From Archangium sp. (GTDB lineage: Bacteria > Myxococcota > Myxococcia > Myxococcales > Myxococcaceae): a stretch of 20,896 nucleotides of DNA. Shown here one piece after another: positions 3,501 through 20,817 of this stretch. Below the pieces are notes generated by a model. That model did not search any database and was not told the DNA's origin. It worked only from the letters and a program-made list of their open reading frames with translations. Both the position numbers and the translations under genes were made by a program. The stretch is taken from assembly GCA_016792935.1 (NCBI GenBank), contig JAEUJS010000455.1, positions 1 to 20,896 on the forward strand, written 5' to 3'. The first letter of the stretch is position 1, and every line of letters begins with the position of its first letter.

Positions 3501-3790
3501 AAGACCCGGGCCGCGGCTTCGGAGAACAGCAGGGCGCGCTGCAGTCACTGCGCGGGCTGCAGCAGTCGATGGGCGAGTCGGGCAACAAGGGCAAGGGCGG
3601 CATTCCGCTCCCGATGCGCGGCAAACGTGGTGGTCGCGGCACGAGCAACGAGAAGGTCGAGATTCCCGACGAAGACCCCAACGCCGCGCCGCGCGAGTTC
3701 CGCAAGGACGTGATGGACGCGATGAAGCAGGGCCAGCCCGACCGCTACAAGGAACAGAACAAGAAGTACTACGAGGAGCTGGTGAAGTGA
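572..3790 (+). CDS. Large membrane-anchored coiled-coil protein, DUF4175-like (two N-terminal TM helices, a beta-rich middle region, a long Gln/Glu/Lys/Arg-rich helical C-terminal half)
   Basis: 1072-aa ORF with consistent high GC3. TM segments are GLLLGLIVALVFLVAGSWVGA and GGLFSFAVLAWFGVVL. The middle block 'VKFDASDDYGLTTLDLVF...YQWDLAPLALNPGQIVTYALEATDNDAVKGNKKGTSTTMRLKLYS' matches my memory of the conserved DUF4175 core. About 500 aa of heptad-like E/Q/K/R/L sequence follow. The 572 start is GTG and unverified; an internal TTG/GTG start is possible. Confidence 0.7.
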   Translation: MLEPSAPPPGPLPEPKPVPPPVSSDGRALRLLAEVRAAQARALWTQGLLLGLIVALVFLVAGSWVGASHARVGLGVLVSGGLFSFAVLAWFGVVLPRRKVGDDARTAKLLAERLPELNLDLLAAVELSKALGRTGEDFSPELARAFLRDVDLRAAKLSVQKLIDQRPTQRAAMSMVATVFVVLTLLVVQGKKLREGFAAAVTPAEKTEPSRRQPITGDVELTYRYPAHTGLEPRTIAGSTGDVSAPTGTEVTFKTRADRDVEAAALIFGPAGTRVPLRVDKRELIGSFVVNESGVFHVAFLSKAPWGDAVGLQDGTDPVAEGPDQSVTAEVDQPPQARISAPVDNLELDPKKQVVTVKFDASDDYGLTTLDLVFTPVGGKTQRVSLKPDDGRTTRGSYQWDLAPLALNPGQIVTYALEATDNDAVKGNKKGTSTTMRLKLYSSAEHRREALQKAEVLWTRLIDHLADRMEGPDRAQATNVPPSKGSVGSGLDAMVTGKPVDERGTVLATDFIQLAHDLNEEQDPPQELLAAMQNVGTELRDDVGQVSTNRNFLLRLSGRIAAPNGKTQFVDPRAGSYTQDLQRRVSISIETDIKHSEKNVLYLEALLDRARLDAIRELTRQLRDDRQELSKLLDEYKNSPDPENGQRLLDQMDALKQRMDDLQKRIAELSSKIHDDFMNAEALQEMNREFDMNDVFADMEKLIREGKADEALRRMQEFSMQMDQFLENLDRAEERAEQQMDPELAQQFTEFQDNLQDTIDKQDQLSEKTRQLRDKYRAAQKERIAKQGEALKKELKEKLAELEKSWSQGEQRYGAEFKEKLREAQQSRANVGQSLEANDFDLASEAAESMEKRAWEMSSLAQEMYRWEDSPQNPPEYRREARQNAEKYAKDAKKAAEISSKLRDLFPQPGQQMSEADRQQMNELSRQQKQLQNQAAQLQQQMDDINERAPIFNQDSMDQAQQAGQRMQGAGEKLQGKDPGRGFGEQQGALQSLRGLQQSMGESGNKGKGGIPLPMRGKRGGRGTSNEKVEIPDEDPNAAPREFRKDVMDAMKQGQPDRYKEQNKKYYEELVK

Positions 3791-5535
3791 TCTCCGCGCT
3801 CGTCGTCGCGACGCTGGTGCTCGCGCAGACCCCATCAGCAGGCTTGCCTGCTGGGGTAGCCGAGGAGCCCGACCTCTCTTCCGTGAAGGGCGAGGCGAAG
3901 GCGCGCATCCAGAACCTCGACCAGTACCTCGACGATTGGGACCTCGAGGCCGCGAAGGGAGAGCTCGCCGCGCTCGAGAAATTGGCGCCCGCCGACATCG
4001 AGCCGCTGGCGTACTACCAGGGCCGCATCGCCTTCGAAGAGGGCCGCTACGAAGACGCGTCGAAGCTGCTCGAGAAGGCTGGCCTCACCGACAAGCCCAA
4101 CAGCTGGGTGCGCCTCGCGAAGGACACCGGGCAAATCGTCGCCAACTACGAGAAGGCCGAGAGCGAACACTTCATCTTTCTGTACCCGAAGGGGCGTGAC
4201 GCGGTGCTCGTGCCGTGGGCGCTCGAGACGCTCGAGAGTGCGCGCGCTGCGTTGGAGAAGGACCTCGGCTACGCGCCTCCCGGAAAAGTGCGCGTCGAAG
4301 TGGTGAGCAGCGGGAGCGAGCTGGCGAAGGTCTCGACGCTCACCAAAGAAGCCATCAAGACCACCGGCACCATCGCCATCTGCAAGTTCAACAAGCTGAT
4401 GGTGACGAGCCCCCGCGCGCTGGTGCTCGGCTACGACTGGCTCGACACGCTCGCGCACGAATACGTACACCTCGTGGTCAGCAAGAAGAGCCGCAACACC
4501 GTGCCCATCTGGATGCACGAGGGCCTCGCGAAGTACCTCGAGTCTCGGTGGCGTGGTCCTGCGGGCGGAGCGATGACGCCTCCCACGCTCGCGTTGCTCG
4601 GCATGCGCGTGAAGAAGAACACGCTGGTGCCCTTCGAGAAGATGCACCCCTCGATGGCGTTGCTCCCGACGGCGGAAGACGCGGCGACGGCGTTCGCGGA
4701 GGTGTTCTTCGCGTTGAAGCTCATCGACACCGAAGGCGGCCCGCAGGCGCTGGAGCGGTTGCTCGACGAGATGAGCAAGGGCGTCAGTGACCGCGCGGCC
4801 GTCGAGCACGTGATGAAGCGGAAGTGGCCGGCGTTCGAAGCGAGCTGGATGGCGTCGCTCAAGAAGCAGCCGTTCCCGAAAGAGCTGATTCCGCCGTCGT
4901 CCTTCGAGAAGAAGGAGCTCACCGAGAACAAGAACGCCGAGCCGAAGAAGAAGGCGCGCGAGGTGAGCTTCGGAGATTTCGCCGAGGTGACCGAGAACGA
5001 CGCGCGGCGTGATGCGCATCTCGGTGAGCTGTTCCGTGAGCGTCAGCGCATGAAGGCGGCGGCCGAGGCGTACGCGCGCGCGCACAAGGTGGTGGGCGAC
5101 AAGTACGAGTCGGTGTCGAACAAATACGCGCTGACGTTGCTCGAGCTCGAGCGGTACGACGACGCGGCGAAGGTGCTCGAGTCGAGCCTCGTGATGCATC
5201 CCGGGGTGTCGGCCACCAACGTGCACCTCGGTCGTATCTATCTGCGCGCGGAGAAGTGGGACGCGGCGAAGACGGCGTATCTCGCGGCCAACGCGGTGAA
5301 CCCGTTCGATCCTGAGATTCATGTCGCGCTGTTCGTCGCGGCGACGGAGCTCAAGGACGTGAAGCTCGCGGCGCGCGAGAAGGAAGCGGTGAAGCTGCTG
5401 CTCTCGCTCGATGACGCGAAGGTGACGGAGCTCGCTCGGCGTTTCTCGGGCATCAAGGATCTCGCGAACGTCGACTTGAACGCGGGCGCCGTAGAGAAGT
5501 CCTCCGACACGAAGAAGACGGACGCGGGGACCTGA
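3787..5535 (+). CDS. Secreted TPR-flanked zinc metallopeptidase-like protein (Peptidase_MA_2-type HExxH...E gluzincin motif)
   Basis: 582-aa ORF. The GTG start overlaps the upstream stop by 4 nt (GTGA, 3787..3790). N-terminal signal-like MISALVVATLVLAQTPSAG. Motif LAHEYVHLVVSKKSRNTVPIWMHEGLAKYLESRW, i.e. HExxH plus a downstream Glu in the 'P.W..EGLA.Y' context typical of the Peptidase_MA_2 family. TPR-like helical repeats lie on both sides (YYQGRIAFEEGRYEDASKLLEKA; YALTLLELERYDDAAKVLESSL; GRIYLRAEKWDAAKTAYLAANAVNP). Confidence 0.75.
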   Translation: MISALVVATLVLAQTPSAGLPAGVAEEPDLSSVKGEAKARIQNLDQYLDDWDLEAAKGELAALEKLAPADIEPLAYYQGRIAFEEGRYEDASKLLEKAGLTDKPNSWVRLAKDTGQIVANYEKAESEHFIFLYPKGRDAVLVPWALETLESARAALEKDLGYAPPGKVRVEVVSSGSELAKVSTLTKEAIKTTGTIAICKFNKLMVTSPRALVLGYDWLDTLAHEYVHLVVSKKSRNTVPIWMHEGLAKYLESRWRGPAGGAMTPPTLALLGMRVKKNTLVPFEKMHPSMALLPTAEDAATAFAEVFFALKLIDTEGGPQALERLLDEMSKGVSDRAAVEHVMKRKWPAFEASWMASLKKQPFPKELIPPSSFEKKELTENKNAEPKKKAREVSFGDFAEVTENDARRDAHLGELFRERQRMKAAAEAYARAHKVVGDKYESVSNKYALTLLELERYDDAAKVLESSLVMHPGVSATNVHLGRIYLRAEKWDAAKTAYLAANAVNPFDPEIHVALFVAATELKDVKLAAREKEAVKLLLSLDDAKVTELARRFSGIKDLANVDLNAGAVEKSSDTKKTDAGT

Positions 5536-5856: not shown

Positions 5857-7059
5857 TCATTTGACGGGCACGTAGCTCGTCGGCACGCCGCCGTTCTTCA
5901 CCAGCTCGTGAAACGTCTCGACGGCATCGGTCGCCTTGCGCTGCAGCGTGGCGTCGGTGCGCACGTCGACCGTGAAGAGTCCGAACCGATTCCGGTAGTC
6001 GCCCCACTCGTAGTTGTCGGTGAGTGACCAGTAGTTGAAGCCGATGACGTCGATGCCTTCGTCGCGCGCGCGCTGCAGCCAATAGATGTGGTCGCGCAAA
6101 TGGTTGCTGCGCGTGTAGCCGTCGCGGCGCGGCAGTCCGTCGTCGGTCGCCATGCCGTTCTCCACCACGTACAGCGGCAGGTGCGGAGCGCGTGCGTGGT
6201 AGTCGCGCAGCGCGGTGAGCAACTCGCTCGGGCGGAAATTCACGCGCCAGAATTTGCCGCGACCGGCGTGCGCGACGGACAGGTCGAGCGTGAGCGCGTA
6301 GTAGTAGTCGAGCGCGATGAAATCGACGTGATGTGCGACGCGCTCGAAGAACCAGTCGTCGAACCAGCTCGCGGGTGCTGGTTCCCACACGACGTTGGTC
6401 GAGACCGGAGCGCCGGCGTCTTCACGATGCAGCAGATCGAACGCGACGACGTGCATCTGAACGAGCCGTGCCTTCGCGCGCTCGACCTCGGCGTCGGGGA
6501 CGGAGCCGTGTCGGCGTTCGAGCGTGAGGAAGTAGGACGCTTCGTTGAGCGTGACCCACCGTGCACCTCTCGAGCGGTAGCGCCTGGCGACCACTTCGAC
6601 GAAGTCGCGAAACGCGCGAACGATGGAATCTGAAGCGAGTCCTCCTTCGTCGAGCACCCAGCCGGGCGTGACGAAGTGCAACAGCGTCGGCATCGGCGTC
6701 ATGCCTCGCTCGCGGAGTGCCTCGAACATTTGGTCGTAGTGCCGGAGGGCCTCTTCATCGACCACGCCGCGCCTGGGCATGACGCGCGCCCACTCGATGG
6801 AGAAGCGGAACGTGTCGACTCCGAGTGAGGCGGCGAGCGCGATGTCGTCGCGGAAGCGGCGGAAGAAATCGACCGAGTCGGCGTACGGCTCGTGCGCGGT
6901 GCCCGGGCGCGTCGTGTAGCGAGTCCAGTTGCTGTCGGGGAACGAGCCCTCGCTCTGAAATCCGGAGGTCGCGACGCCCCAATGAAAGTCTTTGGGGAGC
7001 TTCGAGACGGGCACCGCACAACCGCTCACCACCAACGAGATCAGGAACGCCGTCCGCAC
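5857..7059 (-). CDS. Glycoside hydrolase family 1 (beta-glucosidase-like), probable lipoprotein
   Basis: GH1 signatures: FHWGVATSGFQSEG near the N-terminus; TLNEASYF (acid/base Glu in an NE motif); YVVENGMATDD (nucleophile Glu in an ENG motif); WSLTDNYEWGDYRNRFGLFTVD near the C-terminus. I place the start at GTG 7059..7057. This gives MRTAFLISLVVSGC, a signal peptide with lipobox VSG|C. The track's 489-aa version (to 7326) would cross the divergent gene that starts at 7142. Confidence 0.85.
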   Translation of the reverse strand: MRTAFLISLVVSGCAVPVSKLPKDFHWGVATSGFQSEGSFPDSNWTRYTTRPGTAHEPYADSVDFFRRFRDDIALAASLGVDTFRFSIEWARVMPRRGVVDEEALRHYDQMFEALRERGMTPMPTLLHFVTPGWVLDEGGLASDSIVRAFRDFVEVVARRYRSRGARWVTLNEASYFLTLERRHGSVPDAEVERAKARLVQMHVVAFDLLHREDAGAPVSTNVVWEPAPASWFDDWFFERVAHHVDFIALDYYYALTLDLSVAHAGRGKFWRVNFRPSELLTALRDYHARAPHLPLYVVENGMATDDGLPRRDGYTRSNHLRDHIYWLQRARDEGIDVIGFNYWSLTDNYEWGDYRNRFGLFTVDVRTDATLQRKATDAVETFHELVKNGGVPTSYVPVK

Positions 7060-7141: not shown

Positions 7142-7840
7142 ATGCACATCGACGGCTTCTCGGTCGACGCCTTCCGGCGCACGGTCGATGACGACCAGAT
7201 CGTGGTCATCGCGCTCGGGGACGAGCCGGCCGCGCTTCGTGAGCGACTCGGCGGCAACACCGAGACGTGGCTCACCTCGACCTCGCCCCACGCCGCCGAG
7301 CTCGACGTGCTGTTCGGTCGCCCCACCGGACTCCCCGAGCTGCTCTTCGTGCGTCACGGCGTCATCGTGCGCTGGTGGCTCGGCCATTCCGGCTCGCTCT
7401 CATCGCTCGACGTGAAGCCTGACATTGAGGCGCCGTTCACTCCGGAGCGCTACCGCGCATTGGTCGACGAAGTGCGCGCGCTCAGCGACGTCGAAGCTGC
7501 GTGGAGAGAAGTCACTTCGTGGCGCGAACTCCCCGACACGGTGCCGACCGCGTACGCGTTCAACGACGAGACGCTCCGACTCGAGCGCGGCGGCGCGGCG
7601 AGCCAGCGTCACAAGAACGGAGAGCTCCTCGGCACGTGGAGACTCCGCAGTGACGGCGACCTCGACCTCTTCTGGAAACGCTTCGTGCGCGAGAACGACG
7701 AAGGCACCGAGACCTCCGAGCTGGACCGACGCGAGGTCTGGCAGCTCGGTCAACGCGACGGTCGGGTGCAGGTGAGACCGACGCGCGGTCTGCTCCCGCG
7801 GCTCACGGCCTCGCACCGTGTCTTCATCGCCGACGCCTGA
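7142..7840 (+). CDS. Hypothetical protein (232 aa)
   Basis: Complete ORF with uniformly high GC3 (checked codon by codon) and balanced amino-acid composition. Divergent from the GH1 gene and convergent with the ferritin-like gene (12-nt gap). No motif I can name. Confidence 0.6.
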   Translation: MHIDGFSVDAFRRTVDDDQIVVIALGDEPAALRERLGGNTETWLTSTSPHAAELDVLFGRPTGLPELLFVRHGVIVRWWLGHSGSLSSLDVKPDIEAPFTPERYRALVDEVRALSDVEAAWREVTSWRELPDTVPTAYAFNDETLRLERGGAASQRHKNGELLGTWRLRSDGDLDLFWKRFVRENDEGTETSELDRREVWQLGQRDGRVQVRPTRGLLPRLTASHRVFIADA

Positions 7841-7852
7841 CCAATTCCGCCC

Positions 7853-8668
7853 TCAGCGACGCGATGCCTTCACTTTGATGCCCAGCTTGTCGAAGCGCCG
7901 CAACACGTCGCGCTCGAGTGACTTCTCGTAGACCTTCGTCCGCTCGGCGTTCTTCAGATGTCCGAAGGGATTACGAGGCGACTCGGTGTCGTCGAAGTCG
8001 CAGCCCTCGAACACCGCCTCTCTCGCGCTCTCCAGGTCCATCGTGATGCGCTTCTCGACGCGCTTCTTCTCGCGAGCGTTGAGCACCGGCCACAGCTGCG
8101 CGAGCAACGTCCACCCCAGCTGCGAGTGAAACGACTCATCGCGCGTCAGCGCCGTCACCACTTCGCGCGCCAGCGGGTCTTCCGTCACGTCACGCGTCGC
8201 GGCGAGCAGCGCGGTGGACAGAGTCTCTCCGATGCACAGACTTCCGGTGAGCGTCTGCACCGCGCGCACCCGCAGCGGCTCCGCTGAATCACTGCGCACC
8301 CACTTCGGCTCGCCGGGAATCTCGTCGGTGCCGCCAAGCGCGTTCACCAATCGCCGGCACAGCTCGACGTGCCGTGCTTCATCGCGCACCACGCGGACCG
8401 CGGCGGTCAACGTGTCGAACGCGCAGCCCAGCTCCGTCAGCTCGAAGAGGAACTCGGTGAAGCCGACCTGCGAGCGATACTCGTCGAGCGTGCGCAGCTG
8501 CCACGACTCGCGCGCCCAGCTGATGGTGTCTTCGTCGTAGCGGCTCGGGTCGAACGCCTCGAACGACTTCGCGTGCAGCGCCTCGGGCAACGCCTCGTCG
8601 AAGAAGCGCCGCTGATTCGTCGCGAGTCCGGAGTCGGCCGCGCCGAGGTGAAGGATGGGCTGCGTCAT
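7853..8668 (-). CDS. Ferritin-like diiron-carboxylate protein (duplicated E...DExxH motif)
   Basis: Start placed at ATG 8668..8666 (MTQPILHLGAADS), 4 nt after the upstream gene's TAA (8673..8675). First half-site: LDEYRSQVGFTEFLFELTELG...RVVRDEARHVELCRRL, Glu then DEARH about 33 residues later. Second half-site: CIGETLSTALL...TALTRDESFHSQLGW, Glu then DESFH about 29 residues later. This is the classic four-helix-bundle diiron ligand pattern. Confidence 0.75.
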   Translation of the reverse strand: MTQPILHLGAADSGLATNQRRFFDEALPEALHAKSFEAFDPSRYDEDTISWARESWQLRTLDEYRSQVGFTEFLFELTELGCAFDTLTAAVRVVRDEARHVELCRRLVNALGGTDEIPGEPKWVRSDSAEPLRVRAVQTLTGSLCIGETLSTALLAATRDVTEDPLAREVVTALTRDESFHSQLGWTLLAQLWPVLNAREKKRVEKRITMDLESAREAVFEGCDFDDTESPRNPFGHLKNAERTKVYEKSLERDVLRRFDKLGIKVKASRR

Positions 8669-14035: not shown

Positions 14036-16057
14036 ATGTGCCCTGATGAGAACGAGTTGCTGAAGTTCGCGAGCGGTGCCGCGGGTGAGCTCCCGGCCCT
14101 GGAAGCGCACCTCGACGGTTGCGAAGACTGCCGGCGTGCAGTGGCGGCGGCGGCTTCAGAGCGCACCCTGCCGACGCAAGCCGTCACGCACACGCTCTCA
14201 CCCGGTCAGCGCGTCGCCCGCTACGAAATCGAGCGCGAGCTCGGCCGCGGAGGCATGGGCATCGTCTACCAGGCGCGCGACGTGACGCTCGATCGCCGCG
14301 TGGCGCTCAAGCTGCTGCACGCGCGCCGAGATGAAGCGGCACAGGCCCGACTCCTCCGCGAAGCACAGGTGATGGCGAAGCTCACGCACCCCAACGTGGT
14401 GCCGGTCTTCGAGCTGGGCGAGTGGAAGAGCGACCTCTACCTGGTGATGGAGCTGGTGAACGGCGTCACGCTCGAGCAGTGGTTGAAGCGCGAGAAGCAC
14501 CGCCGCTCCGACATCATTCATGCCTTCGTTCAGGCGGGCCGTGGACTCGCCGCTGCACACGCAGCGGGCGTGGTGCACCGCGACTTCAAGCCAGCGAACG
14601 TGTTGGTCGGTGGTGATGGCCGCGTGCGCGTGACCGACTTCGGGCTCTCGCGGCCGGGACCTGCGCTCGAGCTCCCGGCGACCGACAGCGCCGTCGTCAC
14701 GCGCGACGGAGCCATCGTCGGCACGCTCGCGTACATGTCTCCCGAGCAGATCGACGGGAAGACGGCCGACGAGCGCAGCGACCAGTTCTCATTCTGCGTG
14801 TCATTGGTGGAAGCGCTCAGCGGCCTGCGTCCCTTCGAAGGAGAGAACTGGGCGCAGCTCGCGCAGGGTCTGGCCAAGAAGCCGCGCCTCTCTGGAGTGC
14901 CGCGTGCCCTGCGCTCCGTTCTCCGCAAGGGCCTCGAGCGAGATGCGTCGCGTCGCTACACGTCACTCACCGCGTTGCTCAACGCCATCGAGCGCAGCCA
15001 GCAGCTCGGGTGGAGCGCCGTTGCCGCCACCGCCGCCGCCGCGCTCGTCGCCGCAGGGGTGTATTTCTTTCCGACGCTCGCTCCGCAGCCGGCGGCGCTG
15101 GGCAAAGACCTCGTTCCCATCGTCGTCGCCAGCCGCGACCTGCAACCCGGCACCGTCGTCACCGCCGACATGCTCGAGCAACAAGTGATGCCGAGGGAAC
15201 GCGTCACCACCTCGTTCGTCGCGCACGACTCGCTCAGCTACATCCTCAATCAGAAGGTCATCGTGCTGGTGCAGAAGGGCGACCCCATCACCTGGCAGCA
15301 GTTCGAGACGGCAGACAAGCCGAGCCTCGCGAATGAGGACTACGTGCCAGTGGTGATGGCCGCGGTGGACATCGTCGACGGCACGACCGTGACGATGGAG
15401 ATGATTCAGCAGCGCAACATGCCGTCGATGTACGTCACCAGCTCGGTCATCAAGCCCGACGCCGCGTCGTACATCGTGGGGCAGAGAATCCTCGTGCCGG
15501 TGCAGAAGGGCGACGTGTTGCTGTGGTCGCAGTTCGAGACCATCAAGAGCAACACATCGATGGTGACGGTGATGGTGGCCGCTCGTGATTTGCCCGAGGG
15601 CTCGGTGCTCAGCAAAGACCGCGTCATGCAGGAAGAGATCCCCGAGTACATGGCGACCAGCTCGGTGATGCGGCCCAGGCAGTCGGGGCACCTCTGGGGT
15701 CACGCGCTCAAGGGCAAGCTGCGCAAGGGCGACCTGATTCTGTGGAGCAATCTGTCCGACGAGATGTTCATGGAAGACGGGCTCGACGCGAACTCGGTGA
15801 CGGAGCTGGTGAAGAAGAACATGAGCTCGCTCGCGCCGTGTCTGCAGAAACCGCCGCTGGGCGTGCCCCAGACGAACATGGTGTGGAGCGTTCATCCCGA
15901 TGGCTCCGCGTTCGACGTGCACCTCGAAGAGAAGGACCTCACCGGCAGCGAGCTCGAGTCGTGTCTCTCGAAGGCGGTCACCGCGCTCAGCTTCCCGAAG
16001 TCGAAGCGGCCGACGGTGGACGCGTCGCTGCAGTTGGTGTTCGCACCGGCGCAGTGA
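14036..16057 (+). CDS. Membrane Ser/Thr protein kinase with an N-terminal anti-sigma (HxxxCxxC) motif, three extracytoplasmic SAF-like repeats and a C-terminal TonB-C/AgmX-like domain
   Basis: Start placed at ATG 14036 (AGGAGG at 14025..14030, 5-nt spacer) rather than the track's GTG 14012. ZAS-like motif EAHLDGCEDCRRAV. Kinase motifs LGRGGMGIVYQA, VALKLL, HRDFKPANVLV, DFGLSR, YMSPEQ. TM helix AVAATAAAALVAAGVYFF. Three repeats of about 85 aa (VPIVVASRDLQPGTVVTADML...QKGDPITWQQFET; VPVVMAAVDIVDGTTVTMEMI...QKGDVLLWSQFET; VTVMVAARDLPEGSVLSKDRV...RKGDLILWSNLSD). C-terminal SLAPCLQK...MVWSVHPDGSAFDVHL...LESCLSKAVTALSFPKS. Confidence 0.9.
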   Translation: MCPDENELLKFASGAAGELPALEAHLDGCEDCRRAVAAAASERTLPTQAVTHTLSPGQRVARYEIERELGRGGMGIVYQARDVTLDRRVALKLLHARRDEAAQARLLREAQVMAKLTHPNVVPVFELGEWKSDLYLVMELVNGVTLEQWLKREKHRRSDIIHAFVQAGRGLAAAHAAGVVHRDFKPANVLVGGDGRVRVTDFGLSRPGPALELPATDSAVVTRDGAIVGTLAYMSPEQIDGKTADERSDQFSFCVSLVEALSGLRPFEGENWAQLAQGLAKKPRLSGVPRALRSVLRKGLERDASRRYTSLTALLNAIERSQQLGWSAVAATAAAALVAAGVYFFPTLAPQPAALGKDLVPIVVASRDLQPGTVVTADMLEQQVMPRERVTTSFVAHDSLSYILNQKVIVLVQKGDPITWQQFETADKPSLANEDYVPVVMAAVDIVDGTTVTMEMIQQRNMPSMYVTSSVIKPDAASYIVGQRILVPVQKGDVLLWSQFETIKSNTSMVTVMVAARDLPEGSVLSKDRVMQEEIPEYMATSSVMRPRQSGHLWGHALKGKLRKGDLILWSNLSDEMFMEDGLDANSVTELVKKNMSSLAPCLQKPPLGVPQTNMVWSVHPDGSAFDVHLEEKDLTGSELESCLSKAVTALSFPKSKRPTVDASLQLVFAPAQ

Positions 16058-16102
16058 ACCAGCGTTGACGGGCGAGGAGCGTGCGAGTTCGCTTGGCAGT
16101 CC

Positions 16103-16909
16103 ATGGCACGTGAGAAGCCGCTGAGCACCGCACGCCGTCTCGAGAGAAGTCTTCCGAAGTTATCGCCGCTGATGCGCGAGGCGTACGCCTCGATGTGGAC
16201 CGACGCGCAGTGCGATGCGTGGGGCCGGAGAACGAAGGGCCCCGAGGTCGCGAAGCAGGCCAACGACTGGCTGCAGCTCGCCGACAAGGCGCTGCGCGCC
16301 GAGGGAGCAGAAGACATCCCGTGGTCGCGGCAGAGACTCGCGTGGGTCGCGTCGCTGACGGTGCAGCTCGAGAACGAGCTCGCGGGGAAGCTGGACGATG
16401 AGAGCTCCGCGGCGCGGCATGCGCGTGACGAGCACCTCGCGGCCGCGAAGCATCTGCGCGCGAAGACGTTGAGCCGCATGTCCTTGCTCGTCGGCGGCAA
16501 CGGAGAGCGCGGCGCGGCGCTGGCAGTGGCGAACAAAGACAGCTGCAACGCTGACGAGGTCGCCTCGACGCTCGGTGCGCTCGCCAACTTGCTGCATCTG
16601 TGGCGAATGGAAGCGCGCCTGCGGCTCCTGGCAGACGAGCTGGGGCTCGATGAGACCGTGGTGCGTGGGCTGCGTGAGTCGAAGAGTCAGCTGGCAGAGG
16701 CCGAGCTGAACGCGGCGAGCCTGCGTCCGTCGCGCGGTGATGGGCCCGCGCTCAACCGCGTGGAAGGAAGGTTGCTCCGCGAGTTGCGCGCGCTGCAGCT
16801 CGCGTTCGGAATGGCGCGCGACCAGGGGCTGAATGCGCCGAAGTTGCCGGTGCGGGCGGCGCTCAAGTCGATCTTCTCGAGTCGGCAGTCCACCGAAGTC
16901 GAGGAGTAG
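16103..16909 (+). CDS. Hypothetical helical protein (268 aa)
   Basis: Complete ORF with consistently high GC3 (read codon by codon) and helix-rich, balanced composition. The competing antisense ORF 16160..16915 is Arg-rich low complexity. No family recognised. Confidence 0.6.
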   Translation: MAREKPLSTARRLERSLPKLSPLMREAYASMWTDAQCDAWGRRTKGPEVAKQANDWLQLADKALRAEGAEDIPWSRQRLAWVASLTVQLENELAGKLDDESSAARHARDEHLAAAKHLRAKTLSRMSLLVGGNGERGAALAVANKDSCNADEVASTLGALANLLHLWRMEARLRLLADELGLDETVVRGLRESKSQLAEAELNAASLRPSRGDGPALNRVEGRLLRELRALQLAFGMARDQGLNAPKLPVRAALKSIFSSRQSTEVEE

Positions 16910-17361
16910 TCGCACGCACTCCGCACGAAGCGACGCTGGAGGCGCACGCAGTCACGCCGGAGGCGCACGCAGTCGCTCGGGAGCTGCACGCAGTCTCGCC
17001 GGAGCCAAACGCAGTGACCCCGGAGGCGCACGCAGTGACTCCGGGGGCGCACGCAGTCGCTTGGGAGCTGCACGCAGTCACGCTGAAGGCGCACGCAGTC
17101 ACGCCGGAGGCCCACGCAGTCACGCCGGAGGCCCACGCAGTCACGCCGGAGGCGCACGCAGTCGCTTGGGAGCTGCACGCAGTCTCGCTGAAGGCGCACG
17201 CAGTCACGCCGGAGGCCCACGCAGTCGCTCGGGAGCTGCACGCAGTCCCGCTGGAGGCGCACGCAGTCACGCCGGAGGCGCACGCAGTCACGCTGGAGGC
17301 CCACGCAGTCGCTCGGGAGCTTCACGCACTCACGATGGAGGCGCACGCAGTCACGCCGGCT
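16910..17361. repeat. Spacer-less tandem array of a 21-bp unit, consensus GCGCACGCAGTCACGCCGGAG. Twenty in-register copies (16942..17361) plus about 1.5 degenerate leading copies
   Basis: I parsed every unit. The core CACGCAGT is identical in 17 of the 20 units. Three are variants: AACGCAGT in unit 4, CACGCACT in unit 19, and unit 5 differs only just after the core. Three unit types occur: A (..GTCACGCCGGAG), B (..GTCGCTYGGGAG) and C (CTGCACGCAGTCNCGCYGRAG). B is always followed by C. The order is A-BC-AA-BC-AAA-BC-A-BC-AA-BC-A. The array starts 1 nt after the stop codon at 16909. Confidence 0.95.
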
Positions 17362-17596
17362 TCCAGCCGCCGCAGTCGCGACTCGGCCACCAGCCCCGCG
17401 CGCCGTACCTGCACGGTCGCTCGAGGCCCTACCTGTCGTGGCCATGCACCCCGGTGTCCGCGTGCGTCCTGCACGGCGAGCCGACGAGCGCGGTGGTGAC
17501 GGCGCGGCACCTCGCGACAAGTCACCGCTCATCATGCGTGGCGAGTTCGCCTTGCGACTCCCGAGCGTGTCTCGTCCAGCCCGTTAGACTCCCGCC

Positions 17597-18031
17597 ATGC
17601 GAGACATCATCCACACGCTCGAGCAGCAGCACCGCGCCCTGGAGAAAGAAGTCGCCATGCTCGAAGGCGCGCTCGCAGCGAAGAGCGCGCGTGGCGTCCG
17701 CTCCGCGCTCGACAAGCTCGAAGGCATGCTCACCGTGCACTTCACGCTCGAGCAGAAGGAGTTCTACCCGCCGTTCCTCCAGCGCGTGGAACAGGCAGAC
17801 CCCGAAGCCAACAAGCTCGTGCTCCTCTTCCACCAGAACCTCGAGCGCATCGCGCTGGGCGTGCTCGCCTTCTTCCGCCGATGGAACGGCGAGCTCGAAC
17901 CCGCGCGCCTCTCCGAGCTGAACGGAGAATGGAAGACCACGCTCAAGGTGCTGTCCGGCCGCCTGCGCGACGAAGAGAAGGTGCTGCACCCCATCTACGT
18001 GCGCCTGTTCGGAGCGCCTCCGACGAGCTGA
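17597..18031 (+). CDS. Hemerythrin-like (HHE cation-binding) domain protein
   Basis: 144 aa. IIHTLEQQHRALEKEV, LTVHFTLEQKEFYPPF, LFHQNLERI and EEKVLHPIY give the spaced H / HxxxE / H pattern of hemerythrin-like four-helix bundles. GC3 is high. Confidence 0.7.
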   Translation: MRDIIHTLEQQHRALEKEVAMLEGALAAKSARGVRSALDKLEGMLTVHFTLEQKEFYPPFLQRVEQADPEANKLVLLFHQNLERIALGVLAFFRRWNGELEPARLSELNGEWKTTLKVLSGRLRDEEKVLHPIYVRLFGAPPTS

Positions 18032-18808
18032 TCAATCCTCATCGACGAGCGGCGGCGGAGACGACTCACTCGCACCCAACACCGCCGCCGTGATGGCGCC
18101 CGACACGCCCAGCCCAATCGCCACGCTCCCCGTGCCGAGCAGCGCGTTCGCGGCTCCCGCACGCTCGAGCGCCTGTGGCCGCGTCAGCGTCGTCACCACC
18201 GGCTGCTCCGCGAGCGCGGCGTCGAGCTGACCCTTCGCCACCGCACCGGCGATGAGCAGCGCGATGCCCACCACGCCTACGCCGAGCGACGTGAAGCCGA
18301 TGACCTTCGGCGCCGCAGACGGAGCGGCACGCGACGTGTCCACCCACTCGGGCTGCGGCACGACCTTCACGGGCGGCTTCTCGACCTCGGGCTTCGGGTT
18401 CTCCGCGACCGGCGCGTCCTTCAACAGCCGCGTCGAGAGCTGATGCGCGAACACCTGCGCCTCGGGGCTGCGCTCGAACTTCTCCACGTTGCTCACGAGG
18501 AACGTCTGCTGCAACACGACGGCCTCTCCATCGACGGCGTCGAGGTCCACCGTCACGCCCTTCTTGCTCTTCACGATGGTCATGCCGACCACCACGCGCT
18601 TCCGCTCGCGCGCCAGCGACTGCAGACAGGCGCGGTCCGCACACGTCTCGTTGACGACCTCGGCCTTCACGCTGACGTCCTCGAGCGCCTTCGCCAACTT
18701 CGTCCGCAGCTCCGCTCCTGCGGGAGCAGGAAGGCCGAGCGTCGAGCGTTCCACCACCACCACGTCGGCGGCGGCAGAGACGATGAGCGTGAGGGCGAGC
18801 GCGAACAT
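18032..18808 (-). CDS. Secreted/membrane-anchored hypothetical protein (signal peptide, Pro/Lys/Glu linker, two C-terminal hydrophobic helices), co-transcribed with the upstream kinase
   Basis: Start placed at ATG 18808 (MFALALTLIVSAAADVVVV), 5 nt after the kinase stop (18814..18816). Linker ENPKPEVEKPPVKVVPQPEW. Hydrophobic helices VIGFTSLGVGVVGIALLIAGAVA and GTGSVAIGLGVSGAITAAVLGA. The track's 18862 start would overlap the kinase gene. Confidence 0.65.
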   Translation of the reverse strand: MFALALTLIVSAAADVVVVERSTLGLPAPAGAELRTKLAKALEDVSVKAEVVNETCADRACLQSLARERKRVVVGMTIVKSKKGVTVDLDAVDGEAVVLQQTFLVSNVEKFERSPEAQVFAHQLSTRLLKDAPVAENPKPEVEKPPVKVVPQPEWVDTSRAAPSAAPKVIGFTSLGVGVVGIALLIAGAVAKGQLDAALAEQPVVTTLTRPQALERAGAANALLGTGSVAIGLGVSGAITAAVLGASESSPPPLVDED

Positions 18809-18813
18809 GGTGG

Positions 18814-20817
18814 TCACTTCTTGAAGAACGTCTTCTCGATGTCCGCCAACTCGGACCAGCACTTGTCGGGCGCCGCGCTGCAGTAGCGCGCCTCGTCGAG
18901 CTGCAACTTCGCTGCGCGTCGCAGGTCTTCCGGCAACGTCTTCGCGCGCTGATTCAGCTCACGCCACTTCTTGTTCACGTCCTTCTGCGTGTGCCGCTCC
19001 GCCTTCGCCGGAGCCTTCGGTTTGGGGGGCTGCGGCTCGGGTTTCACCACCTCGACCGGCTCCGGCTTCACCACCTGGACCGGCTCGGGCTTCTCCACTT
19101 CGACCGGCGGAGGCAGCTCGACCACCGGCTTCACTGGAGGCCGCGGTGTCTCATCAGGAAGACGCAGCGCGACGAACGCACCGCCAAGCACCGCAATCAC
19201 ACACACCAGCGCGACAGGCACTTTCCAGCTGCCGCCACCCTGAGAGGGATGTTCATCGGTGGTCTCGCGCGACGCCGCATCGGCAGCGGGCGCCACGGGA
19301 CGCACGCGCGTGGGAACGACTCCGGCCGCGAGCGCTTCGCCCAGCCGCTCGAGCTGCTCCTTCACTTCCTGCGCGGACGCGGGCCGTTTCTGCGGGTCTT
19401 TCTCGAGCAGCCGCATCACCAACTTGTCGAACTCCACCGGCACCTGCGGAGCCGACGTGCGCAACGGCCTGGGCGCCAACGTGCGATGCGCGTCGAGCAG
19501 CTCGTGCAGGTTCGCCGAGGTGAACGGCGGATGACCACTGAGCATCTCGTACAGCACACAGCCGAAGCTGTAGAGGTCGGTGTACGGCCCGACGTTCTCT
19601 CCGCGCGCCTGCTCGGGAGCGACGTACAGCGGCGTGCCTCCCACGCTCGTCTGCCGCAGCGAACGCGCGCCCTTCTCACCGCGCCGCGCGAGCCCGAAGT
19701 CGAGCAGCTTGGGAAACACCGAGCCGTCGTGGAGCTTCAGCAGGAACACGTTGCCTGGCTTCAGGTCGCGGTGAATCACGCCCGCGGCGTGCGCAGCGCC
19801 GAGCCCGCTGAGCATCGGAATGCAGATGGACAACGTTTCCTTCGGGCTGAGCGGCGCGCGCTCGGCCAGCACCTGCTCGAGCGATTGTCCCTCGAGCAGC
19901 TCCATCACCAGGAAGGCGTCGCCCGCGGGGGTCTCGCCGAAGCTGAAGACGTCGATGATGTTCGGGTGCCGCGCGATGGACAGCGAGCGCGCTTCCTCGA
20001 GGAAGCGACGCGCGTGGTCGGGGTCATTCGCGTACTCGCGGCGCAGCAACTTGATGGCGACGGGCCGGCCGATGACGGGGTGCTCTCCGCGGTACACGAC
20101 GCCCATGCCCCCGGTGCCGAGCGGAGCGAGGACGCGGTACTCGCCCAACATCGCGCCGATGAGTGGGTCGGTCGCGCTGCTGATGGCGCGCACCGTCGTC
20201 ACTTCGAGCGGAGCCGCCGGCACATCAGGGCCCGTCACCAGCTCCGGCTGACGTCGCACGGCCGGAGGATCGACGATGGCCGGGTTGGCGCGAATCACCG
20301 CGGGCCGTCGCTGCGTGGCATCGGCATCACCCGGCTCCGCCCACGGCACTTCATGGCGACCCGTCAGCTGATCTCGCTGAACGGTGGAATCGAGACCGGC
20401 GTCCACTCCCGCGTGCGTCGGAGGCGGAACGATGTCGCGCGAGTGTCGACGCACGGTCCGCTCGAACGCGCCTTCCTCGCTCGGAGGCGGAACGAGGTCG
20501 CGCGAGTGCCGACGCACGGCTGAATCAGCAGGCGAGCCGGCTGCGTGACGCGGGTCCAACGGTGCACCTTTGTCTCCCGCATCTCCCGCGTGCGCGGCGT
20601 GTTGTGTCGTCGAGACCTCACGTGACTGACGTCGCGCGTTCGGGAGCGCGGCCTCTCGCACCGTCGGCGCGTGCGGCTCCTCGTCGATGGTGAGCGCCGC
20701 GTGCGCAGGCCGCGCCATGGACGGGTCGGTCGGTGCGTCTCCGCGCGCGGCCTTCAGGCGCTCCAGAACACCGTCATCGTGTGCGTCGTCGGTGGCCATC
20801 AGAGTTTGTTGAACCAC
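18814..20817 (-). CDS. Membrane Ser/Thr protein kinase with a long disordered N-terminus and a Pro-rich extracytoplasmic C-terminus
   Basis: Kinase motifs LGTGGMGVVYRG, VAIKLL, HRDLKPGNVFL, DFGLAR, YVAPEQ. TM helix VPVALVCVIAVLGGAFVAL. The C-terminal region contains VEVEKPEP/VQVVKPEP/VEVVKPEP repeats. The start is ambiguous: GTG 20817 or ATG 20799 (MATDDAHDD), neither with an obvious SD. Confidence 0.9.
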   Translation of the reverse strand: MVQQTLMATDDAHDDGVLERLKAARGDAPTDPSMARPAHAALTIDEEPHAPTVREAALPNARRQSREVSTTQHAAHAGDAGDKGAPLDPRHAAGSPADSAVRRHSRDLVPPPSEEGAFERTVRRHSRDIVPPPTHAGVDAGLDSTVQRDQLTGRHEVPWAEPGDADATQRRPAVIRANPAIVDPPAVRRQPELVTGPDVPAAPLEVTTVRAISSATDPLIGAMLGEYRVLAPLGTGGMGVVYRGEHPVIGRPVAIKLLRREYANDPDHARRFLEEARSLSIARHPNIIDVFSFGETPAGDAFLVMELLEGQSLEQVLAERAPLSPKETLSICIPMLSGLGAAHAAGVIHRDLKPGNVFLLKLHDGSVFPKLLDFGLARRGEKGARSLRQTSVGGTPLYVAPEQARGENVGPYTDLYSFGCVLYEMLSGHPPFTSANLHELLDAHRTLAPRPLRTSAPQVPVEFDKLVMRLLEKDPQKRPASAQEVKEQLERLGEALAAGVVPTRVRPVAPAADAASRETTDEHPSQGGGSWKVPVALVCVIAVLGGAFVALRLPDETPRPPVKPVVELPPPVEVEKPEPVQVVKPEPVEVVKPEPQPPKPKAPAKAERHTQKDVNKKWRELNQRAKTLPEDLRRAAKLQLDEARYCSAAPDKCWSELADIEKTFFKK

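Follow-up and report, generated by a model that had tools for sequence, protein, structure and literature searches.

A conserved 21-nucleotide element amplified in tandem behind the stop codon of a Myxococcota gene family

Arrays of binding sites placed beside the gene of their own binder are known from plasmid replication and partition. The iterons of plasmids are direct repeats (19 bp in P1 oriR/incA, 22 bp in R6K, and 17-bp repeats at ~22-bp spacing in RK2), and the incA array of P1 is located just downstream of repA. The tandem-repeat centromeres of partition systems include sopC of F, in which 12 repeats of 43 bp lie downstream of sopB, as well as parC of R1 and parC of pSK41, and a parS site occurs inside spo0J. 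Mycobacterial MIRUs are intergenic VNTRs of 40–100 bp, dispersed over dozens of loci. At the RNA level, the RNAs of the CsrB/RsmZ class and ToxI are encoded by small-RNA genes of their own or upstream of the toxin gene, and their motifs are presented in hairpins or pseudoknots.

In the window, that is, the whole stretch of 20,896 nucleotides from contig JAEUJS010000455.1 of Archangium sp. (assembly GCA_016792935.1), we found an array of 21-bp tandem repeats behind a gene at 16103–16909 (+ strand; hereafter designated the linked gene), which encodes a basic (pI 9.2), all-helical protein of 268 residues belonging to a Myxococcota-specific family. The array is a VNTR by definition and belongs to no named family; by analogy, it may be described as an array of tandem cis-elements beside its presumed cognate gene, which would work most like plasmid iterons, tandem-repeat centromeres or iterated-motif sponge RNAs, yet differs from each of them in defining features. 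With iterons it shares direct repeats of 17–22 bp at about two helical turns, a conserved core followed by a variable remainder, and a position beside one gene, but the adjacent protein in the window has no Rep-type winged-helix match in sequence or fold searches, a GC content of 0.70–0.73 throughout 16800–17600 leaves no AT-rich unwinding region, the locus belongs to the chromosome, and the array and the stop codon overlap, so that the array would be transcribed. A plasmid or phage origin was also rejected, since tblastn searches against 72,556 plasmids and against phages detected no homologue of the linked protein and viral contigs contained none of the arrays.

Like partition centromeres, the array adjoins the gene of its presumed binder, and a copy of the 11-mer GACGCGCAGTG within the linked gene, as a possible extra site, recalls parS in spo0J. 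Unlike them, it has no ParA, ParM or TubZ gene nearby, the neighbours being genes for a sigma-like protein, a Ser/Thr kinase, a hemerythrin-like protein and an unknown protein in the window, and CBS-domain, aldose epimerase and aldo-keto reductase genes at other loci; moreover, the linked protein has neither a ParB nor a ribbon-helix-helix fold, and the presence and copy number of the array vary by species. MIRUs are similar in being head-to-tail intergenic repeats of variable copy number that overlap the upstream stop codon, whereas the units described here are 21 nt long, are kept across deep divergence, and follow one gene family only, an exclusivity that refers to the ~300 kb of sequence examined. 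As with the CsrB/RsmZ RNAs and ToxI, a short motif present many times on a single transcript would give multivalent binding; in contrast to those RNAs, the array would constitute the 3' tail of an mRNA and shows no structure signal and no Rfam match, and it departs from ToxIN in lying downstream of the gene, whose product has no ToxN/AbiQ endoribonuclease fold. Literature searches returned no description of such arrays in myxobacteria.

Twenty well-formed units with the consensus CGCACGCAGTCACGCCGGAGG follow one another in register at 16943–17362 (+), in agreement with Tandem Repeats Finder, which reported a period of 21 with 20.9 copies at 16922–17359 (78% matches, 0% indels, score 484) together with a higher-order period of 84 bp (5.2 copies, 83% matches, score 605). 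The figure of about 20 tandem units given in a preliminary description of this DNA thus stands, and the unit order proposed there, A-BC-AA-BC-AAA-BC-A-BC-AA-BC-A, is exactly reproduced by the in-register layout, where class A (alpha-like, as defined below) carries GTCACGCCGG, class B (beta-like) carries GTCGCT[CT]GGG, and class C begins with TGC or TTC and always comes after B, all three on the + strand. The extent of the array had been drawn too short, because degenerate in-register units flank it on both sides (16911–16942 and 17363–17383). Its leading edge at 16880–16942 (+) is decayed: when the 21-bp register is extended backwards from GCAGT at 16948, remnants of the core are met on the + strand as GCAGTC at 16885, inside the coding sequence of the linked gene, and as GTAGTCGC at 16906, a stretch containing the TAG stop codon of that gene, and these are followed by a half-unit, CGCACGCACTC, read from the sequence at 16911–16921 (+), and a degenerate unit, CGCACGAAGCGACGCTGGAGG, read in register at 16922–16942 (+). 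A trailing degenerate unit, CCAGCCGCCGCAGTCGCGACT, with GCAGTC in register, occupies 17363–17383 (+). Including the decayed ones, ~23 units stand after the stop codon of the linked gene.

The octamer CACGCAGT occurs 20 times in the window, 18 times within the array, always on its + strand, and twice elsewhere, compared with a chance expectation of 1.29 ± 0.99 for the whole window, as estimated from dinucleotide-preserving shuffles (n = 100), none of which reached 20. It is exact in 18 units and not, as first counted, in 17, since only units 4 (AACGCAGT) and 19 (CACGCACT) deviate; both had rightly been listed as variants, but the octamer of unit 5, listed with them, is intact. The CACGC pentamers of the A units start 9 bp apart rather than 8 bp, and the equation of 21 bp with two helical turns holds as plain arithmetic.

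We compared the DNA around 14 distinct lineages of the linked gene, most of them represented by metagenomic contigs. Homologous 21-nt units are present at or just after the stop codon in 10 of the 14, always on the gene strand and in 1 to ~24 copies, and at every such locus the array starts 0–40 nt past the stop codon of the linked gene. Besides the window, the loci with units (protein identity in parentheses) are L047–L052 (81%; 6.5–8.5 units of GTGCGCGCAGTCGCTCCGGCG), L053 (70%; 61 bp × 3.3 plus 21 bp × 21.3), L064–L066 (70%; ~7 degenerate units), L058 (67%; 5 units), L067 (66%; 1–2 units), L059 (61%; 9 units), L055/L056 (57%; 6.5 units), L057 (57%; 10 units), and L068 (55%; 2–3 units), so that at least five units are retained in 8 of the 14 lineages. 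The anchoring can be as tight as an overlap, the TGA stop codon being the start of the first unit, TGACGCGCAGT, in L058, L059 and L067. Linked-gene loci L054, L060, L061 and L063 carry no unit at all, and the element is therefore dispensable for the gene; L046 (90% protein identity) was left unjudged, its contig ending 28 nt past the stop codon. As judged from these sequences, the unit is a conserved non-coding element of 21 nt, linked to one gene, anchored at its stop codon, confined to one strand, and amplified to variable copy number.

The copy number differs even between close relatives (8.5 units in L047 vs 6.5 in L048 with an identical flanking gene, and ~24 in L053 vs ~7 in L064 with proteins 86% identical), which corresponds to the VNTR behaviour considered in the preliminary description, although, where short-read assemblies are compared, such differences could partly stem from the assembly itself; the longer L047 allele is common to four samples. 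The contigs of L047–L052 stop within or shortly past the repeats. An assembly artefact is nevertheless an unlikely source of the array, because independent assemblies of relatives have homologous arrays at the same place. Longer duplications were also observed at two of these loci: in L048 (2381–2588), a segment of ~95 bp that opens with the last array unit has one further copy downstream of the array, and a direct repeat of ~90 bp with the pattern CGCTCACGTT..GGGGGTG..CAATCTGTACATGCCCGGGCAG..GAGCCACGAGTTGGACC is present in two copies (7545–7640 and 7775–7870) between the array and the hemerythrin gene of L053.

Beyond these loci, a search for three CACGCAGT octamers at 21-bp spacing in 185,579 genomes, a set from which the source genome is absent, returned 45 matches in many phyla, all of them unrelated: the rest of the unit differed entirely in every one, and none was near a homologue of the linked protein. 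The candidate dispersed family was rejected, the 45 matches being chance agreements among the many bacterial 21-bp arrays, and the array family envisaged in the preliminary description is not detectable by CACGCAGT among those genomes. Arrays of 21 bp are seemingly common in bacteria (L001–L045); those of L029 (Thermoanaerobaculia) and L003 (Treponema), for example, have 22 and 19 units, respectively.

When the consensus sequences of six arrays are compared, C3, GCAGT (positions 6–10), C15 and G17 are invariant, giving a family consensus of GACGCGCAGT[CG]-N4-C-N-G-N4, of which CGCACGCAGTCACGCCGGAGG is the window version. Two old unit variants can be recognized, alpha (GTCACCCCGGCAC) and beta (GTCGCTCCGGCG). 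The alpha unit, GACG[AC]GCAGTCACCCCGGCAC, is identical at 19–20 of 21 positions among L055, L057 and L067, and the beta unit, GACGCGCAGTCGCTCCGGCG, matches at 10 of the 11 nucleotides of its tail, which lies outside the core, among L047, L057 and L068; 11-nt tails alike at 10 or more of 11 positions were found in five pairs of loci, a level reached in none of 2,000 tail shuffles. Since the A units of the window are alpha-like and its B units beta-like, the A/B-C pattern would reflect two ancient unit types, and the distinction between classes A and B drawn in the preliminary description is real and common to several species. Fourfold-degenerate sites of the linked genes are 45–68% identical between lineages, as against 38–47% expected at saturation from composition alone, which places the synonymous sites of the linked gene close to saturation. 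The survival of the units while synonymous sites are nearly saturated argues for purifying selection on the units themselves.

The protein encoded by the linked gene is matched by neither Pfam nor NCBIfam models and is not significantly similar to any solved structure, and sequence and fold searches recognized no nucleic-acid-binding fold in it; exact look-ups of three window proteins gave no match. Its 54 close homologues are from Myxococcota in every case carrying a name, and the family, with 274 cluster representatives, is basic (pI ~9–10). Some distant members (P0055, P0147, P0193, P0197 and P0191) have Lys/Ala-rich N-terminal tails resembling histone H1, and C-terminal heptad repeats are seen in P0197 ('KEPDKPA', five to six times) and P0191 ('EGRLLRR', five times), those of P0191 coming after an apparent frameshift.

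The first unit follows the stop codon too closely for a terminator to fit in between, so the array would be transcribed as the tail of the mRNA of the linked gene. A simple scan of the window spacer found neither a sigma-70-type promoter nor a canonical terminator, and the same scan found no canonical terminator after the arrays of L055, L057 and L059. A GC-rich hairpin resembling REP (short repetitive palindromic) elements follows the array in L055, L057, L059 and L064, while none was seen in the spacer after the window array. Such hairpins, of the type GGGGAGAGGG / CCCTCACCCC, occur after the gene or the array in many relatives (L046 3049–3076; L055 5780–5801 and 5990–6030; L057 ~6150–6190; L059 ~5130–5170; L060 ~3545–3585; L064 ~4990–5030). 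In some cases the hairpin is translated and supplies the C-terminal end of the protein, as in '...GEGRGEG'. A stable RNA fold was not indicated for six of seven arrays, whose folding energies were no better than those of shuffled sequences on either strand: five of the seven gave z-scores between −0.7 and +2, and the window array gave +5.3 in the sense orientation, less stable than shuffles, and +3.5 in the antisense orientation, L055 (−3.3 and −2.4) being the only negative case. A scan of 16000–18100 with Rfam 15 yielded only a sub-threshold CRISPR-DR20 match inside coding sequence (20.5 bits vs a gathering score of 42).

Collectively, the chances appear about evenly balanced that the array is a functional multivalent binding platform tied to the upstream gene. 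A conserved core repeated at a fixed spacing of 21 nt, with no stable RNA fold, would offer such a platform to a sequence-specific binder, the obvious candidate being the basic protein whose gene lies immediately upstream. At the RNA level, the array would act as a single-stranded 3' untranslated region, a tether or sponge in cis through which mRNA stability or yield is set; at the DNA level, it would present duplex sites all on one face of the helix in the style of iterons or centromeres. In such a platform, the copy number would tune the strength of the effect. From these comparisons, an RNA-level role seems at least as likely as a DNA-level one, and we lean slightly to RNA because the strand is fixed and the anchoring to the stop codon is strict. 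A DNA-level role accords equally well with the 21-bp period and the basic protein, and iteron-like DNA binding is possible by analogy. The argument from helical phasing is weakened by the 20-bp units tolerated in L053 and L064, and the constant period could be inherited rather than selected.

Within the platform reading, a more specific form is put forward only tentatively, namely, a two-part Myxococcota module in which a basic helical protein would recognize the 21-nt element iterated at the 3' end of its own gene, an element that also matches an 11-mer in its own coding sequence. Acting in cis, the protein would then target the DNA or mRNA of its own locus, with the repeat number serving as a fast-evolving gain control. 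The 11-mer GACGCGCAGTG is the strict ancestral core of the array units in relatives, from which the window units have drifted, and in ~300 kb of high-GC DNA it occurs only in the arrays and at one conserved site inside the linked gene. This site, at 16202–16212 (+) in the window, covers codons D-A-Q-C of the invariant TDxQC(D/E)AW motif and is found in relatives at L046 2341, L047 1701, L054 5103, L059 4103 and L062 1000. A search for co-variation of the intragenic site with the array cores found none. The intragenic GACGCGCAGTG may be a relic of the origin of the unit, a second site for the same putative binder, or a chance match, the probability of the last being roughly 1 in 300–1000 as estimated after the fact.

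Alternatively, the array could be a minisatellite without function, in which a single element at the stop codon is functional or a relic and the multi-copy arrays are neutral products of replication slippage and unequal recombination, so that their copy number would carry no meaning. A copy number that ranges from 1 to ~24 and changes between close relatives, the four lineages without the element, and the 84-bp higher-order repeat, which is typical of unequal crossing-over, all agree with this explanation, as does the frequency of 21-bp arrays in bacteria, 45 unrelated ones having matched the phased-octamer pattern. Against it, the 8 lineages of 14 with five units or more have kept them despite nearly saturated synonymous sites, and both old unit types have remained nearly intact across lineages, which is not expected if the extra copies drift. 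Moreover, bacterial genomes have a well-known deletion bias, which should purge 150–630 bp of useless DNA. We consider neutral amplification unlikely on balance, though still a serious alternative to a functional platform.

The neighbourhoods of the linked gene bear on a further explanation, that the array is an iteron-like set of DNA sites controlling the downstream hemerythrin gene. The window, L053 and L064 have in common a sigma-like gene, a Ser/Thr kinase gene, the linked gene, the array and a hemerythrin gene. In the window, a sigma-70 region 4 protein (13250–13915, +) precedes the kinase (14012–16057, +), which has a weak N-terminal zf-HC2 (anti-sigma-like) match and three SAF domains, and in all three loci these two genes come before the linked gene. 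The array stands 234 bp ahead of the start codon of the hemerythrin gene, the arrangement recurs in L053 and L064, and the tail of the B unit, CGCTCGGGAGCTGCA, is 87% complementary to 17553–17567, just upstream of the start codon. As observed separately, the complementary stretch TGCGACTCCCGAGCG at 17553–17567 stands ~30 nt before the hemerythrin start and pairs with CGCTCGGGAGCTGCA at 16974 and 17226, a match that could be due to chance. Control of the hemerythrin gene is opposed by the other loci: L055–L057 and L068 have a CBS-domain gene upstream instead, and the downstream gene is an aldose epimerase in L055, an aldo-keto reductase in L057 and a convergent gene in L067 (61 nt away) and L068. 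Furthermore, the anchor is the upstream stop codon with no fixed distance to the hemerythrin start, and the spacer adjoining the hemerythrin gene is not conserved, barely aligning between the window, L053 and L064. Because homologous arrays follow the linked gene amid differing neighbours, the array travels with the upstream gene; by this comparison, it is inherited with the gene at 16103–16909 and not with the hemerythrin gene, contrary to the preliminary description, which had presented it as an element upstream of the latter. Hemerythrin control is already largely refuted by these comparative data and is regarded as improbable.

Several other features of the window were noted in passing. 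An ORF at 13039–13803 (−) overlaps the sigma-like gene and is probably spurious. The gene at 9232–11484 (−) encodes a protein of 750 residues with a major-vault-protein shoulder and repeat domains (PF11978, 3e-31; PF17795), and a vault-like homologue occupies the same relative position in L053. Between the vault-like and sigma-like genes, the segment 11499–13027 (−) contains an AAA_21/MADS3-like/PtuA-like ATPase gene (12062–13027, −) accompanied by an ORF of 188 residues without a family; it is missing from the corresponding stretch of L053 and could be a small defence-type insertion. A 24-bp × 3.2 tandem repeat at 19033–19108, inside a Ser/Thr kinase gene at 18814–20817 (−), encodes a proline-rich linker of the 'VKPEPV' type and is an ordinary coding repeat.

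It is also conceivable that the array is translated, either as a heptad-repeat gene of its own or as a C-terminal extension of the 268-residue protein reached by readthrough or frameshifting. The period is a multiple of 3, and four frames in the window are open or nearly so. All six had been reported as open; only three are free of stops throughout (two + and one −), the others having a single stop near one end of the array (−), 4 stops (the + frame continuing the linked gene) and 10 stops (−). The question is hard to decide within the window, where the high GC content keeps frames open, and is settled by the relatives, in which frames were compared by their position relative to the conserved GCAGT core. 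The 'xAVxPxx' (RAV) frame, read as HAVTPEA in the window, is in frame with the gene in L055, L058, L059 and L067 but is shifted by 1 nt in the window and L057 and by 2 nt in L047, the relation between the gene frame and the GCAGT core not being constant from locus to locus; it has 5, 2 and 7 stops in L057, L058 and L059, respectively. Likewise, stops interrupt the 'DAQ' frame in the window, L057 and L058. The sole frame open in all seven arrays checked, 'ARS/TRS', has an atypical GC3 of ~57%, as counted on the consensus unit, and in the window it overlaps both neighbouring genes.

Indels in the arrays do not respect codons: the L047 array includes one 20-bp unit, L047 and L048 encode an identical protein and differ solely by a 41-bp indel inside the array, and 20-bp and 61-bp units are included in the arrays of L053 and L064. 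Substitutions among the 20 window units are distributed over codon positions as 22/17/16 in every frame (p = 0.57), with no enrichment at third positions. Distant family members have ORFs that cross such repeats ('RRAVRQA' four times in P0193, and 'GRAxxxx' heptads in P0061), and the 268-residue protein ends in residues encoded by the decayed first units of the window array. The Pfam matches of array frames (Pneumocystis MSG and, narrowly missing the threshold, a grass antifreeze repeat) were rejected as repeat or low-complexity artefacts, and a protein database search with the translated consensus array gave no scored match. Translation is thus highly improbable, no frame being usable throughout. 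Except where the final few codons of the upstream gene extend into its decayed leading units, the array is non-coding by this comparison, and the preference of the preliminary description for a non-coding element is borne out by the lack of a consistently open frame in relatives, by indels that are not multiples of 3, and by the absence of codon periodicity.

Least probable of all is a processed repeat RNA of the ToxI kind in a type III toxin-antitoxin system, with the units cut into monomers that neutralize the adjacent protein, because, although a tandem non-coding repeat does adjoin one protein gene on the same strand and is co-inherited with it, the array comes after the gene rather than before it with a terminator in between, the protein is all-helical with no significant similarity to solved structures, the units are 21 nt instead of ~34–36 nt with no folding signal, many family members have no array, and plasmids and phages have no homologues.

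The array has practical consequences for genome data. It breaks short-read assemblies, most short-read contigs of close relatives ending in or just past the repeats, and it invites spurious gene calls, as seen in the four long ORFs in the window and in ORFs of public protein sets that cross such repeats. The four array ORFs, already suspected to be artefacts when first listed, are counted as spurious, the array being non-coding by comparison with relatives. If the units bind the protein encoded next to them, the two would make up a new pair of protein and cis-element in Myxococcota, with a natural copy number of 0 to ~24. A chromosomal, transcribed version of such a site array, placed at the 3' end of a gene and coupled to an uncharacterized protein family, would then represent a new regulatory arrangement, and it would provide the first handle on the function of a family that has 274 cluster representatives and no Pfam model.
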